From the sequence record MK373782.1: a DNA stretch of 64,000 nt. One strand, given 5' to 3'. Position 1 is the stretch's first letter; each line of letters begins with the position of its first letter. The position numbers and the translations under genes are program-made. The DNA comes from Escherichia phage vB_EcoM_KAW3E185. Below are positions 45,085 through 62,202 of this stretch, piece by piece. Below the pieces are notes generated by a model. That model had not been told where the DNA came from, did not search any database, and worked only from the letters and a program-made list of their open reading frames with translations.

Positions 45085-45198
45085 TTAATTGATTAACCAA
45101 GCATTGATAATCATTAAACTATATTGCGAATAAAATTCTGGACCAAAACGAAAAATCATATCATTTATAGTATCCATAATGTAATTCAATTTAATCAT
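45085..45198 (-). CDS. small hypothetical protein (about 37 aa)
   Basis: Track ORF 45085-45309 overlaps nrdG; start chosen at the Met overlapping the nrdG stop; uncertain. Confidence 0.25.
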   Translation of the reverse strand: MIKLNYIMDTINDMIFRFGPEFYSQYSLMIINAWLIN

Positions 45199-45661
45199 GT
45201 TTCCACACCCCATCGGTATTTGACCAAAGTCGCTGATTATCTGATCCTCGCCACAGCTTTTTAGTCGGAAGATTTTTCTCATACTTCCCATCAATAATAA
45301 CATCAACATATTTAAGCATTTCTAGTTGTTTAATATCTTCAAACTTATATCCTGTCCACAACCAAATGCTTTTATTGGGATAAAGATTTTTTACTGTTTG
45401 AGCAATGCGATGAATAACATCTCGGTTATCAGGATAGAGAGGGTCTCCTCCGGTTATAGTTAATCCTTCTATATAATCATTATTCAAACATTCAATCAAT
45501 TGTTCTAGTGTCTCTCCAGTGAATGGAATACCATTTCTAGCATTCCATGTTGATTTATTATAACACCCTTCACATTTATGCAAACAACCTGTAACGAAAA
45601 GAACGACCCTGCATCCAGGGCCATTCACAAAGCAGCACGGGTATATTCTGTCATAATTCAT
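45191..45661 (-). CDS. nrdG: anaerobic ribonucleotide reductase activating protein NrdG (radical SAM)
   Basis: CxxxCxxC cluster motif CLHKCEGC; start chosen at Met8 because the first listed codon is not ATG. Confidence 0.8.
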   Translation of the reverse strand: MNYDRIYPCCFVNGPGCRVVLFVTGCLHKCEGCYNKSTWNARNGIPFTGETLEQLIECLNNDYIEGLTITGGDPLYPDNRDVIHRIAQTVKNLYPNKSIWLWTGYKFEDIKQLEMLKYVDVIIDGKYEKNLPTKKLWRGSDNQRLWSNTDGVWKHD

Positions 45662-46488
45662 AATAATATCCAATTTTTCCAAGCTTCATCAGTAGAATTA
45701 CAGCGTTTTAGTATAAGATGTCTAGAAACTTTTATGGCATTTGAGCACTTTTTAATTGAATCATACTTAATACCGTCAACTGAAACGGTTTTGCTAGTTG
45801 GAGAAATTTTTCCATACATTGGATTTTTTGAACCAACTTGAAGTCCTTTTAAAGCTTTTGAAAGCTTTTGTCTAGATTCCAATGACATGGGAGAATTCTT
45901 TTTACCTTCAATAATTCGCTTGCGATGAAGTTCGCGTTCTTCTTCACTCAAAGAATTGTAATATTTTTTAACACCGTTTGATATAGATAATTTATCTTTC
46001 TCAGACCGCTCTCCAGCTAATTTACTTCTAACATCTTTTCGCTTCATAGCTATGCTTACGGCTTTATTTAAATTTGCTTGATGCTCTGGCGTACGTTTAT
46101 ATTTCTTTAAAGCACGTGAAATAGCTATTTTAGTTTCTTCTGTTCTCTTTTTACCTTTATTTGCTAAACTATTTTTGCGGCGATGTTCAAGTGTCTGTTC
46201 ATAGGCAGTTCCACCTTTTCCACCAGGTTTAATATTATATGTATTTTCTTTTAGACAATACTCTTCGGTTACGAGTTCAGCTTCTTTATCATACATTTGC
46301 TTTTCATTATCAAAAACATATAAAATTTCTTTATAAAAATTTTTTCTACCATATTTTAATAAAGCAGCACGAATCAATGTTCCTGATCCCATATAACCGT
46401 CATTTATGTTATCGGTGCTATGCGCACCGATATATTCCTTTGAATTAATTATATTTGTTATTTTATAAATTATATAATACCTATGCAT
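45658..46488 (-). CDS. free-standing GIY-YIG homing endonuclease (Seg/Mob-like), 276 aa
   Basis: N-terminal YIIYKITN...KEYIGAHS GIY-YIG motif; repeated basic helix (NUMOD-like) modules; stop overlaps the nrdG start. Confidence 0.7.
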   Translation of the reverse strand: MHRYYIIYKITNIINSKEYIGAHSTDNINDGYMGSGTLIRAALLKYGRKNFYKEILYVFDNEKQMYDKEAELVTEEYCLKENTYNIKPGGKGGTAYEQTLEHRRKNSLANKGKKRTEETKIAISRALKKYKRTPEHQANLNKAVSIAMKRKDVRSKLAGERSEKDKLSISNGVKKYYNSLSEEERELHRKRIIEGKKNSPMSLESRQKLSKALKGLQVGSKNPMYGKISPTSKTVSVDGIKYDSIKKCSNAIKVSRHLILKRCNSTDEAWKNWILL

Positions 46489-47760
46489 GTTTTACTCGTT
46501 TTACCATTTCTTTCATTTTACCTAAATTCCATGGGACAACGCTAGGAGTTCCAAGATATCCGCATGTTCTTCTTATGGTATTCATCTTTTTAGGATCAGT
46601 TTCTCCACAAATAGAACAAACAAATCCGTTTTCAGTAGGAGTCATTTCATGGGTACTTCCACATGTAAAACATTTATCCACTGGCATATTAACACCAAAA
46701 TAATCTAAATGTTGTGCAGCATAATCCCAGACGGCCTCAAGCCCCTTTAAATTGTTTTTCATATCTGGAAGTTCAACATAAGAAATGTGACCGCCTGTCG
46801 CAATGAAATGATATGGGGCTTCGCGAGAAATCTTTTCAAACGGAGTGATATTTTCTTCTACTGAAACATGGAAACTGTTAGTGTACCATCCTTTATCGGT
46901 AACATCTTTTACACTTCCATATTTTTCAGTATCAAGTTTACAGAAGCGATAGCAAAGGTTTTCAGCAGGAGTAGAATACAAGCTAAAAGCAAAACCGGTT
47001 CTTTCGGTCCACTGCTTAAGACGAGCATTCATTTTAGTTAAAATTTCTTGTCCAATATCACGACCGACAAGAATATTCAATTCGTGAATACCGATGTATC
47101 CTAGGGACACTGAACTTCTACCGTTTTTAAATAACTCAATTATATCATCATCAGGTTTAAGACGGACCCCAAATGCACCTTCTTGGTAAAGAATAGGAGC
47201 AACAGTAGCTTTAACTCCTTTTAAGGAACTAATTCTACACATCAAGGCTTCAAAGCACAGATCCATTCGTTCATTAAATAACTCAACAAATTTCTGTTCA
47301 TTGAACTGTGTTCCAATATAAGAATCTAACGCGATGCGAGGAAGATTCAGTGTTACAACGCCAAGATTATTACGTCCATCAAGAATTTCATTACCAGTCG
47401 AATCTTTCCATACACTCAAGAAACTACGGCAGCCCATTGGAGAAACAGGAACTGAAGAACCGGTAATAGCTTTATTATTCTTAACCGAAATAATGTCAGG
47501 ATACATTCTTTTGCTTGCACATTCTAACGCAAGTTGTTTAATATCATAGTTCGGATCATCTTTATAAAGATTAACACCTTCTTCAACAAACATAACAAGT
47601 TTAGGAAAAATAGGAGTTATTCCATCACGACCAAGACCTTTAATGCGGTTTTTAAGAATTGCCTTCTGAATCATTCGTTCAGTCCAGTCAGTTCCCGTAC
47701 CAAATGTAATTGTTACAAAAGGCGTTTGTCCGTTTGAACTAAAGAGAGTATTTACTTCAT
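46481..47760 (-). CDS. nrdD: anaerobic ribonucleoside-triphosphate reductase NrdD, exon 2
   Basis: C-terminal glycyl-radical motif RRTCGYLG and Cys cluster CFTCGS...CSICG; exon boundary placed so that the spliced product is 605 aa. Confidence 0.8.
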
Positions 47761-48805
47761 CATTATATTCAGCATGAGTCGCAAATTCATGCTCGTTTAT
47801 ATGAAACAACAAAATTTGGATAGTCCATAGATATGCAACGTTCTTTTATAGTGCTAGGATGAAAATTTAGCGCTTTAGCTGCTTCTATATAAGACGTATA
47901 CTTAATACCGTCAACAACCACATATTCAGGAACTTTATGAATAGTAGTCTTAATACTCAAAACAAGAGGATGAGTTTCGACTTCACTTTCAGTGCAATTT
48001 AAATATTCCGCTGCTTTTTTAAAACTTCTAAAAGTTTTATTTTTAAGCTTTATCGATACTTGTTTTTTACTTTTTCGACTATTGATATTATTTTGCACAT
48101 GTTCCTTAGATCTTCCGTTTTTAGCATAATATTCAGCTACAGAAGATTTTATATTGTTTTTATGAGATTCGGATAACACTTTACCCTTATGAGCATCTCT
48201 TAATTTTTGAATATGTTCTTCAGTATCCGGATGCTTATAAAACTTTTTACCGCCTATGGATTTATTTAAACATTTTTTGCTATAAAAATATTTACGTATG
48301 ACCTCTTCTTCATGTTTTAATGCATCTTTATAACTATCAAATGTTTTTAAAATTATCCATTTAGTAGGTGTATCAGTTTTTAAGCGTTCATTTATATACT
48401 TAGATGACGTTGTGTAAGTTTTCCAGTTTGTGGGCTTATTTTTAATTGTTCTAAATTTTTTATAACCGATATAAATGTCGCCATTAGAAAACTTAACTAA
48501 GTATGTAAATGCGTCTTTATCTTTTATTTTAGTACAACGTCTTTTTATCCATTTCATTGTTTCACCTCGTATTCATAAGATAATCTTATTTATACAAGAT
48601 GACTGCTGCATGTCGCCATGCAGATTAGACTATATCTTCATCTTTCGATGCCGGCCGTTTCGAATAGCATTAGCTTCTATTCTACACCGCTACATTCATC
48701 ACGGTTAGTCGTTAGGCATTTAGTTCAAAAGAACATTTAGCACGGGATTGTCTACTAGAGAGGTTCCCCGTTTAGACCGGTTTTACATGAGCCTGAATTA
48801 AATTA
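47761..48805 (-). mobile_element. group I intron in nrdD (about 1045 nt) carrying a homing-endonuclease ORF
   Basis: nrdD reading frame is interrupted; exon 1 ends in U and the intron ends in G; GC-rich conserved core CUAAACGGGGAACCUCUCUAGUAGACAAUCCCGUGCUAAAU; splicing restores ...AFQAYE-YEVNTLF... Confidence 0.65.
47787..48557 (-). CDS. intron-encoded GIY-YIG homing endonuclease (I-TevII-like), 256 aa
   Basis: FTYLVKFSNGDIYIGYKKF GIY-YIG motif; located entirely within the nrdD intron. Confidence 0.7.
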   Translation of the reverse strand: MKWIKRRCTKIKDKDAFTYLVKFSNGDIYIGYKKFRTIKNKPTNWKTYTTSSKYINERLKTDTPTKWIILKTFDSYKDALKHEEEVIRKYFYSKKCLNKSIGGKKFYKHPDTEEHIQKLRDAHKGKVLSESHKNNIKSSVAEYYAKNGRSKEHVQNNINSRKSKKQVSIKLKNKTFRSFKKAAEYLNCTESEVETHPLVLSIKTTIHKVPEYVVVDGIKYTSYIEAAKALNFHPSTIKERCISMDYPNFVVSYKRA

Positions 48806-49343
48806 ACTCATACGCCTGGAATGCGTCATAGACATCTTTTTCTGTTTTAGATTGAGCATAATTCAACGCATCAGCGATTTGCCATTTTTCTGCATCCTCA
48901 ATATGTTTTGCATAGGTGCGTTTAACATAAGGAGAAAGTACTTTATCTACATTAGCAAAAGTCGTTCCGCCGTATTGATGGGAAGCAACTTGTGCAGTAA
49001 TTTGTGCCATAATTGCAGTAGCAACACCAATAGATTTAGGCGTTTCAATTTGAGCATTGCCTAATTTAAATCCATTCTCAAGCATCCCCTTTAAATCGAC
49101 TAAACAGCAATTGGTAAACGGAAGAGCAGGAGAATAATCAATATCATGCATGTGAATGATTCCGCGTTCATGCGCATTCATAATAAAAGACGGGACCATA
49201 TTTTTGGCAATGTGTTTAGACACAATACCAGCCATAAGGTCCCGTTGAGTTGGAAAAACACGAGAATCTTTATTAGCATTCTCGTTCAAAAGATCTTTAT
49301 TAGTTTTATAAATTAATCCTTCAATTTCTTTTTCAATTTTCAT
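48806..49343 (-). CDS. nrdD: anaerobic ribonucleoside-triphosphate reductase NrdD, exon 1
   Basis: N-terminal NrdD sequence MKIEKEIEGLIYKTNKDLL...; the track ORF runs 3 codons into the intron before a stop. Confidence 0.8.
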
Positions 49344-60829: not shown

Positions 60830-61045
60830 TTATTGATAAAATGGAGTTAAAGCCCAAGATTCTTTAGATACCATATTGGCGAAATGCCTCATCTCTTCGA
60901 TTTGGCGTCGACGCTGGTCAGCATAGTCTTCTTCGCCTTCTTCCTTACAATCTTCAAGGTCTTCTTCAAGATACTTTAAGTATTCACTACAAATTTTGTT
61001 GACCTTTTCTTGAAAGTCCAATAACCCAGTAATAGTAGAAGCCAT
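60830..61045 (-). CDS. small acidic hypothetical protein (71 aa)
   Basis: ORF on gene strand. Confidence 0.4.
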   Translation of the reverse strand: MASTITGLLDFQEKVNKICSEYLKYLEEDLEDCKEEGEEDYADQRRRQIEEMRHFANMVSKESWALTPFYQ

Positions 61046-61311
61046 TAGTATTTTTCCTCAGGTCGAAATACTGCACGACACGCCCACATGCTGGCTTCTT
61101 TTAGATGTTGCTTAGCATACTTAAGAGCCTGCACTGCATCCATATCTTCTTTGGTTTGTTGCTCTGTTTCATTTTCTTTCAAGATATATGCTTCTTCAAT
61201 CAGAGCATCAAACAACAATCCAAGACGGACTTCTGCATCTTTAATAGCGTTCACTTTACCGATTTTATCATCGGTATGCGGCTTGTAGCCTTTGATGTCT
61301 TCAATCGACAT
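61045..61311 (-). CDS. hypothetical protein (about 88 aa)
   Basis: Track ORF 61045-61479; start chosen at Met57 with GAGGAAA Shine-Dalgarno. Confidence 0.4.
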   Translation of the reverse strand: MSIEDIKGYKPHTDDKIGKVNAIKDAEVRLGLLFDALIEEAYILKENETEQQTKEDMDAVQALKYAKQHLKEASMWACRAVFRPEEKY

Positions 61312-61525
61312 AAGGAATTTCCTCATCAGTGGCAAGGTCATATTCGACCAATTGGATAGGCTCATTAATACCATATCCACGTACAGTGATATCAGTTGTC
61401 GGATAGTTTCCGGTAATATCACCCATTCTAAATGCTTCAGTGAATGATTGCTCGCCTGAGCAACTAAACCAGGCGGCAAAACATTTTAAAACATCTTCAG
61501 ACCCTTCTATAATCAATTTAGCCAT
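61301..61525 (-). CDS. hypothetical protein (74 aa)
   Basis: ORF on gene strand; ATG overlaps the upstream stop. Confidence 0.45.
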   Translation of the reverse strand: MAKLIIEGSEDVLKCFAAWFSCSGEQSFTEAFRMGDITGNYPTTDITVRGYGINEPIQLVEYDLATDEEIPYVD

Positions 61526-61887
61526 TATAGACTCTCAGTAAAGGTGCGAGCGATAACGTCGCGCTGCTGTTCCGGAGTCAGGGAGTTAAAGCGAACTGCA
61601 TAACCAGATACACGGATGGTCAGCTGCGGATATTTTTCTGGATGCTTAACTGCATCTTCTAGAGTTTCACGACGCAGAACGTTAACGTTCAGATGTTGAC
61701 CACCTTCAATTTTAACTTTAGGGTAATGTTCAATTTCAATTTCACGGGCATGCAAACCGTAGAAAATTTCCGGGTCTACAATAGCGTCTTCTTTAAAAGT
61801 CTTAGAGACAATAATCCGGGCTTGAGTACCGTCTTCAAAATAAATAGTGCCTTTGTGTGTGCCTTCAAGAATTTGATATGCTTTCAT
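61525..61887 (-). CDS. GrcA/YfiD-like autonomous glycyl-radical cofactor protein (120 aa)
   Basis: C-terminal ...[59 protein letters not shown], i.e. the PFL-type glycyl radical motif RVSGYAV. Confidence 0.8.
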
Positions 61888-61893
61888 ATAACC

Positions 61894-62202
61894 TCAATTA
61901 GAAAATAAATTTATCCAAGTTTTTTCTTTAATCAAAAATGGGTCGGAATTAAACGCCATTAAACTTTGAGTGATTAATCCCTTAAATGGCCCGTCAATAA
62001 ATTCCATTTTGAAATGTGGAATACTAGTCATCAACCGTGCATTAGGAGCAGTACAAAGAACCTGCTGCCCTGCGAACGGGCCTTTAGTCAAACGGTATCG
62101 TTTAGGTTTAAAATGGTAAATCTCGTAATTTTCTACAAGGGCCCTTTTATTGCATACTGGGCTGTTATAACAATATTCAAAAACTTCAATAGTGGTCATC
62201 AT
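61894..62202 (-). CDS. hypothetical protein (102 aa)
   Basis: ORF on gene strand. Confidence 0.45.
   Translation of the reverse strand: MMTTIEVFEYCYNSPVCNKRALVENYEIYHFKPKRYRLTKGPFAGQQVLCTAPNARLMTSIPHFKMEFIDGPFKGLITQSLMAFNSDPFLIKEKTWINLFSN

Follow-up and report, generated by a model that had tools for sequence, protein, structure and literature searches.

The vs.6 gene of an Escherichia phage encodes a GrcA-like glycyl-radical protein and carries a host-type 3' tract

We analysed 64,000 nucleotides (nt) of Escherichia phage vB_EcoM_KAW3E185 (MK373782.1), hereafter the window, whose positions serve for all coordinates. The gene under study, vs.6, is an ATG-to-TAA open reading frame (ORF) of 120 amino acids (aa) plus stop on the minus strand (61525..61887), and its product is an autonomous glycyl-radical protein of the GrcA/YfiD type. 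Codons 1-60 (61709..61887, minus strand) form a phage-type 5' half, an old and diverged homolog of the GrcA N-terminus. The next 174 nt (61535..61708, minus strand) correspond to nt 201-374 of grcA, encode the glycyl-radical domain and are host-derived. The last 10 nt (61525..61534, minus strand) are again of phage type, with an end reading GAG AGT CTA TAA against GAA AGC CTG TAA in the host. The predicted radical site is Gly95, in the loop RVSGYAV, encoded by a GGT codon (61603..61605, minus strand); in the alignment to the YfiD structure 6OWR and to PflB, it falls on GrcA Gly102 and PflB Gly734.

The gene is closely packed with its neighbours. A GAGG Shine-Dalgarno sequence (61892..61895, minus strand), the putative ribosome-binding site, precedes the ATG by 4 nt and shares bases with the stop codon of vs.7 (61894..62202, minus strand; PHROG 2049), which is the next gene upstream in this compact transcription unit; the start region of vs.6 overlaps this stop codon as well. 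The Vs.7 protein had no match in the Pfam profile search. At the other end, the TAA of vs.6 overlaps the ATG of the downstream neighbour vs.5 (61301..61525, minus strand; PHROG 1986) in the sequence TAATG, and vs.5 is probably translationally coupled to vs.6. The tight overlap of vs.7, vs.6 and vs.5 is the packing typical of a T4-type gene block. Indeed, the order vs.8-vs.7-vs.6-vs.5-vs.4-regB-vs.1-vs-tk is common to the window, RB69 and T4, as is the strand of the vs.8-to-regB block. Over the 1.4 kb around vs.6, nucleotide identity is 99.7% to Escherichia phage APCEc01 and 97.6% to RB69 (genus Mosigvirus), which identifies the window as that of an RB69-like Mosigvirus. Promoters and terminators near vs.6 were predicted in numbers no higher than in shuffled controls.

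The family of the protein is clear. A BLASTP comparison with E. coli GrcA, taken from a RefSeq chromosome, gave 74 identities over 100 positions (E 2e-52), and Vs.6 residues 62-120, RVSGYAV included, are 100% identical to GrcA 69-127; the initial annotation, which had the last 60 residues or so as nearly identical to GrcA, was thus correct. Against PflB the similarity lies in residues 697-759, with about 78% identity over 63 residues. The Pfam Gly_radical profile matched residues 57-101 (1.2e-18; 68 bits for a cut-off of 22.2), and the best match in the PDB was the nuclear magnetic resonance structure of YfiD (6OWR, 4.8e-42), followed by PflB. By BLASTP, Pfam Gly_radical and 6OWR alike, the similarity covers a complete folded domain of 59 residues, and is not the short low-complexity stretch that could have produced a spurious resemblance. 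Vs.6 is therefore a small standalone protein with a C-terminal glycyl-radical domain and the RVSGYAV loop. Within phages, it is identical to RB69 Vs.6 at 115 of 120 residues and to T4 Vs.6 at 113 of 120 (94%). PHROG 1209, which holds the orthologs of T4 Y06I, matched Vs.6 over residues 1-120 (3.1e-62), and matched the N-terminal 61 aa alone at 7.3e-16. Judged by these profile matches, Vs.6 is a full-length member of this phage family and the ortholog of T4 Vs.6/Y06I.

The two halves of the gene relate to host grcA in very different ways. In a codon-aware alignment to E. coli grcA, the 5' half is identical at 93 of 183 aligned nt (51%) and has 42 nonsynonymous codons, whereas the 3' half is identical at 168 of 177 nt (94.9%), with nine synonymous changes and none nonsynonymous (Fisher's exact test on the identities, p = 9e-23). 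Over the tract itself (61535-61708), identity to E. coli grcA is 168/174 in the window (96.6%), 172/174 in RB69 and 173/174 in T4, and every difference between the window and E. coli is synonymous. Base composition follows the same division: GC content is 0.36 in the 5' half, where GC at third codon positions (GC3) is 0.28, and 0.48 in the tract, for a whole-window value of 0.37. The comparison with host grcA that the initial annotation had called for thus gave a 3' tract with host-like GC and a 5' half of another kind. The latter begins with MKAYQ(I/N)L, an N-terminus common to the copies of T4-like and T5-like phages. All together, vs.6 reads as a mosaic in which an old, phage-type 5' half is joined to a 174-nt 3' tract lately copied from host grcA.

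This tract stands alone in the window. When the 64 kb were searched by megablast against 5426 complete E. coli genomes, the grcA-like tract was the only matching segment, and no other host-like DNA was found. In the reverse search, the E. coli tract matched 752 phage records, 638 of them with at least 95% identity. As a donor, pflB or tdcE was rejected, pflB being only 78% identical at the nucleotide level for 94-95% with grcA. No E. coli allele was found among the 5426 genomes that explains the 6-9 private differences of the window, the best being 95.1% identical; of the six private changes in the tract, four go towards A/T, as would be expected from drift in the phage. A protein search with the N-terminal 61 aa, probably limited by its word index, returned five short phage-like fragments and no bacterial source. 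The only database proteins that it retrieved with the phage-type N-terminal half were shortened (60-105 aa), including a 60-aa 'hypothetical protein' that is assigned to Salmonella enterica. They probably reflect vs.6 calls that were truncated or frameshifted, or bacterial assemblies that contain phage DNA.

To place the donor, 180 nt were compared with the grcA genes of 80 species representatives plus Klebsiella pneumoniae, the latter taken from a 5.37 Mb chromosome in PLSDB (CP125156.1). Matches to E. coli grcA numbered 177 for T4, 175 for RB69 and 171 for the window; among host genes, they numbered 167 for Citrobacter, 152-159 for Klebsiella and 151 for both Salmonella and Yersinia. The phage tract is thus nearer to E. 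coli grcA than is that of any other enteric genus tested, the Salmonella and Klebsiella genes being only 84-88% identical to E. coli over this stretch. Moreover, the seven E. coli-diagnostic states, which are rare in other hosts, are present without exception in T4, in RB69, in the window and in the 'Yersinia' Tequatrovirus PYPS2T, and the tract was therefore copied from Escherichia grcA after the split from its sister genera. The direction was from host to phage, because in composition and in choice of codons the tract is like the host, and the phage-type 5' half is not. The initial annotation had proposed acquisition from an enterobacterial host: the proposal stands in a narrower form, with Escherichia as the source, and for the 174-nt 3' tract only, as the 5' half is old and of phage type.

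Several records in this comparison deserve mention in their own right. The tract of PYPS2T matches E. coli at 174 of 180 positions (Y. artesiana grcA, 151 of 180), which suggests that this lineage recently replicated in Escherichia. The Vs.6 protein of Proteus phage Isf-Pm2 is 95% identical to that of the window at the amino-acid level. The K. pneumoniae chromosome CP125156.1 is filed in PLSDB as 'plasmid unnamed2', and the assembly of K. aerogenes NCTC10006 (LR134122.1) has a frameshift in grcA, whose annotation there is a truncated 'pyruvate formate-lyase'.

A second host donor is apparent in Klebsiella phage pKp20 (Jiaodavirus, same subfamily), where a phage-type 5' half is followed by a 3' tract of K. 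pneumoniae type. Here, identity is 168/180 to K. pneumoniae, the first 98 nt being identical, and only 152/180 to E. coli; five of six K. pneumoniae-diagnostic states are present, and GC3 rises from 0.23 in the 5' half to 0.60 in the tract, the clearest case in these sequences for transfer from host to phage. Another 106 phage records show 95-99% identity to K. pneumoniae grcA. The two host genes agree at 159 of 180 positions, each phage tract being nearer to its own host; since the phage tracts are nearer to their own hosts than the hosts are to each other, at least two independent overwrites must have taken place. We conclude from these comparisons that the 3' half of grcA was copied into vs.6 at least twice, recently, from Escherichia and from K. 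pneumoniae. The match counts and diagnostic states already contradict an arrangement with the phage tracts as a single clade outside all host grcA genes. In contrast, the 3' halves of Karamvirus, Slopekvirus, Pseudotevenvirus, Krischvirus and T5-like phages are 70-85% identical to any host grcA tested, and these phages thus show no recent overwrite.

The tract ends carry further information. Among the 40 alignments listed, the tracts of coliphages and Klebsiella phages start at grcA nt 199-208, and nearly all at 200-202. The 3' end is variable: in Escherichia phage OES_C-2 host identity extends through the stop codon, in T4 the last 6 nt differ, and in RB69 and the window the last 10 nt. Some polymorphisms are also found in host alleles, as the C of RB69 at grcA nt 240 occurs in E. 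coli strain HE_50 and the T of the window at nt 303 in an Escherichia sp. allele. Finally, the tract does not follow its flanks. For the window and RB69, identity is 98-99% in the flanking genes, 95-96% in vs.6 and only 95.4% in the tract, whereas for Mosigvirus and T4 it is 73-75% in the flanks, 89-90% in the 5' part of vs.6 and 96-98% in the tract. The variable 3' ends, the shared host-allele polymorphisms and these contrasts of tract and flank hint at more than two overwrite events, and the conserved host-derived tract may also offer phages an island of homology for exchange with one another. Of all alleles seen, that of OES_C-2 (Tequatrovirus) is the most host-like, with 99.5% identity to E. 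coli over 183 nt; it encodes 118 aa and has a two-codon deletion in its N-terminal half.

In T-even phages, host DNA is broken down and recombination is very active, as is known for T4. The 3' half of vs.6 was likely overwritten by homologous recombination with chromosomal grcA, probably in the form of degraded DNA. As the only gene of the window similar enough to a host gene for such recombination, vs.6 would be converted again and again, each conversion restoring the similarity for the next. The common 5' limit lies where the conserved domain begins, a few codons after residue 60, at which the disordered region ends; upstream of it, homology would be too low for recombination. We give a slight preference to the view that vs.6 is a standing target of host-genus-specific overwrites by grcA, which would keep the radical domain matched to the local PflB and PflA and would make the tract a 'barcode' of the recent host. 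This conversion may be ongoing and adaptive, or else a neutral by-product of the active recombination system of T-even phages.

The window also encodes an anaerobic (class III) ribonucleotide reductase (RNR) and its activase, as the initial annotation had recognised. The nrdD gene (46481..49343, minus strand) has the glycyl motif RRTCGYLG and consists of two exons and a group I intron with a GIY-YIG ORF: exon 1 (48798..49343, minus strand) covers positions 1-141 of the Pfam NRDD profile, and exon 2 (46481..47812, minus strand) positions 145-562 and Gly_radical. The intron core (48606..48837, minus strand; Rfam RF00028, 71.6 bits for a gathering score of 50) was missed by a whole-window Rfam scan at the gathering threshold and was found only by a local scan on E-value; the homing-endonuclease ORF within the intron (GIY-YIG/NUMOD1) spans 47787..48557 on the minus strand. 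We take this layout to be like that of the T4 sunY/nrdD intron. In the records of related phages, two separate 'NrdD large subunit' coding sequences and a 'SegH/homing endonuclease' are given, and no intron is annotated. The activase gene nrdG (45191..45682, minus strand) encodes a radical S-adenosylmethionine (SAM) protein (Pfam Fer4_12, 2.1e-48; Radical_SAM). Between it and nrdD exon 2 lies a free-standing homing-endonuclease-like ORF of 276 aa (45658-46488, minus strand; NUMOD3, I-TevI DNA-binding domain). Nearer to vs.6, two genes downstream, vs.4 (61045-61311, minus strand) has a Pfam Acb2/Tad1 hairpin domain (PF24729, 4.4e-18), presumably of the anti-CBASS/anti-Thoeris family of cyclic-nucleotide sponges.

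The protein and its likely function were already known, T4 Y06I having been described in 2001 and the RefSeq name, 'autonomous glycyl radical cofactor GrcA' for the RB69, T4 and APCEc01 proteins, being correct. By tblastn, homologs are present in 1588 phage records, from T4-like Straboviridae of Escherichia, Klebsiella, Enterobacter, Citrobacter, Cronobacter and Aeromonas and from T5-like Demerecviridae. According to Andorfer et al. 2021 (PMC8683613), who relate the work of Knappe and co-workers (Wagner et al. 2001, BBRC 285:456), YfiD and T4 Y06I are spare-part proteins of about 14 kDa; the activating enzyme of pyruvate formate-lyase (PFL) puts a glycyl radical on both, and in complex with O2-cleaved PFL they restore its activity. 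They are to date the only validated PFL spare parts (PMC8683613, PMC13450708). In YfiD, residues 61-127 form the radical domain and the disordered residues 1-60 aid binding to cleaved PFL. Elsewhere, vs.6 was counted among 11 T4 ORFs of unknown function kept in five T4-like genomes (Nolan et al. 2006, PMC1524935).

With this background, we consider it quite probable that Vs.6 is an autonomous glycyl-radical spare part for host PFL and that its gene became mosaic by recombination with host grcA. The initial annotation had likewise proposed a spare part for oxygen-damaged PFL, in agreement with the biochemistry reported for Y06I (PMC8683613). In outline, Vs.6 (14 kDa) would be made after infection from the densely packed vs gene block, and the host radical-SAM activase PflA (PFL-AE) would put the radical on Gly95, as reported for Y06I. 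The C-terminal domain of Vs.6 would then replace the glycyl-radical domain of PflB that O2 cleaves at Gly734, and conversion of pyruvate to acetyl-CoA and formate could resume without new synthesis of the 170 kDa PFL. During T-even shutoff of host gene expression, GrcA would not be replenished, and the phage copy may sustain fermentation in the micro-oxic gut. Formate from working PFL may, in addition, supply the NrdD of the phage: for most class III RNRs characterised, formate serves as reductant, and T4 NrdD belongs with the E. coli enzyme to the NrdD1 subtype (PMC4493059). Consistent with this proposal, NrdD is present in every vs.6 carrier checked (the window, Aeromonas phage PX29 and T5-like phage Th1), and the host-like tract is free of nonsynonymous change.

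Several points weigh against a role in PFL repair. The functional evidence was obtained in vitro on the T4 ortholog only and comes second-hand, and the searchable literature yielded no in vivo phenotype for vs.6. The N-terminal half, whose counterpart in YfiD aids PFL binding, is only about one third identical to GrcA; the phage encodes no PFL activase, the mechanism depending on host PflA; any benefit is of uncertain size, given the short lytic cycle; and the step from formate to NrdD is our own inference. Lastly, Vs.6 falls short of the NCBIfam GrcA equivalog TIGR04365, with 157.7 bits for a cut-off of 170 (E. coli GrcA, 233.9), because its N-terminal half is divergent, although the model still aligns from residue 18 on. 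T4 Y06I, which is biochemically validated, is also below this cut-off (151.1 bits), which therefore defines bacterial GrcA and not function. Formally, Vs.6 thus belongs to a distinct phage subfamily, presumably GrcA-like in function as reported for the T4 ortholog.

Other functions can be imagined for the protein. From its Gly_radical match, Nolan et al. 2006 (PMC1524935) suggested a role in phage nucleotide metabolism, and Vs.6 might then be a spare radical domain or accessory subunit for phage NrdD and not for host PFL. The occurrence of NrdD in the vs.6 carriers checked would suit this idea, as would the position of vs.6 in PX29, directly after nrdD-nrdG and overlapping the end of nrdG. Yet the similarity of Vs.6 to the window NrdD, C-terminus included, is not significant (BLASTP, E 1.7). 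The NrdD motif stands after a Zn-ribbon, in the order CFTCGS...CSICGE...RRTCGYLG, none of which occurs in Vs.6 with its RVSGYAV, and the identity of the Vs.6 domain is 100% with GrcA and 78% with the PflB C-terminus. As the T4 ortholog is moreover reported to complement PFL (PMC8683613), we hold a service to NrdD to be very unlikely. In PX29, the overlap of the vs.6 homolog with nrdG is of 23 nt, and nrdC and nrdH follow; such linkage of vs.6 with RNR genes is absent from the window, where vs.6 lies about 12 kb from nrdD. Improbable too, if a little less so, is that Vs.6 works as a decoy which ties up PflA or occupies PflB without restoring it, and thereby shuts down or redirects host fermentation. 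Phages often encode modified mimics of host proteins, and the half that governs binding to cleaved PFL in YfiD is strongly unlike GrcA; however, a decoy would not need an intact, catalytically competent radical domain, yet this domain has no nonsynonymous change, and Y06I is reported to restore PFL activity, not to inhibit it (PMC8683613).

The remaining explanations concern the tract rather than the protein. It might be neutral, recently acquired host DNA in a gene of no function for the phage, and a tract so nearly host-identical is indeed young. The gene is, however, full-length and its ORF always intact in those 1588 phage records from two phage families, it ranks among the few accessory ORFs that are universally conserved in T4-like phages, and its ribosome-binding site and coupled stop/start signals are kept, all of which leaves this account with almost no weight. 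No greater credence is due to convergence, in which selection on codon usage or messenger RNA sequence, and not recombination, would have made the 3' half host-like. The host gene is highly expressed and codon-biased, and the tract does use host-preferred codons. But selection of this sort cannot give lineage-specific synonymous states (7/7 of E. coli in coliphages, 5/6 of K. pneumoniae in pKp20), nor explain why identity changes sharply, from 51% to 95%, inside a single gene, or why GC3 jumps in pKp20; and other enteric genera, where the same selection applies, are 7-16% different from E. coli.

A PFL spare part encoded by a gene that recombines with host grcA thus accounts best for these observations. 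The protein itself, a textbook accessory gene product of T-even phages, adds little to what was known; the recurrent, host-specific overwrite of its 3' half is the less familiar part and apparently undescribed in the literature searched. No account of the host-identical tract was found there, which is weak evidence, most subscription journals lying outside the search. The mosaic provides direct evidence, at the level of sequence, for natural recombination of strictly lytic T-even phages with chromosomal genes of their hosts, both repeated and recent, and the tract may show the host genus on which a phage lineage recently grew, as for PYPS2T with its E. coli-type tract. For gut coliphages, the findings point to an anaerobic toolkit composed of NrdD, NrdG and a PFL repair part, PFL making the formate that class III RNRs use. 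They also show that a curated equivalog cut-off (TIGR04365) can shut out a functionally validated phage member.

Among known systems, the closest is T4 Vs.6/Y06I (NP_049730), which like the window protein has 120 aa, is encoded between vs.7 and vs.5 and is a mosaic with an E. coli-type 3' tract. The two proteins differ at seven residues, six of them in the N-terminal half and one in the domain (His at residue 73 in T4); in the 174-nt tract, the window has six private synonymous changes and T4 one, and the 3' ends of the tracts are a few nt apart. The GrcA-like genes of Jiaodavirus (pKp20) and T5-like Demerecviridae belong to the same family, with an MKAYQ... N-terminus as in the window. GrcA2 and GrcA3 (NCBIfam NF008341 and NF038360; about 80 aa) have the radical domain in common with Vs.6, which scored 95-107 bits and remained below both cut-offs (145 and 158 bits), but they lack any N-terminal half. 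E. coli GrcA/YfiD (P68066; 6OWR) is, like Vs.6, a small standalone protein, with a domain 100% identical in amino acids and 96.6% in nucleotides; its N-terminal half is only about one third identical to that of Vs.6, which is phage-specific and 7 residues shorter, and its gene sits between host ung and eamB, whereas vs.6 sits in a lytic phage gene block. The part that the spare protein replaces, the C-terminal glycyl-radical domain of PflB (697-759; PDB 1H16), belongs instead to an enzyme of 759 aa. By analogy, the mechanism of Vs.6 is presumably that of GrcA: activation by PflA, followed by replacement of the cleaved PflB C-terminus.

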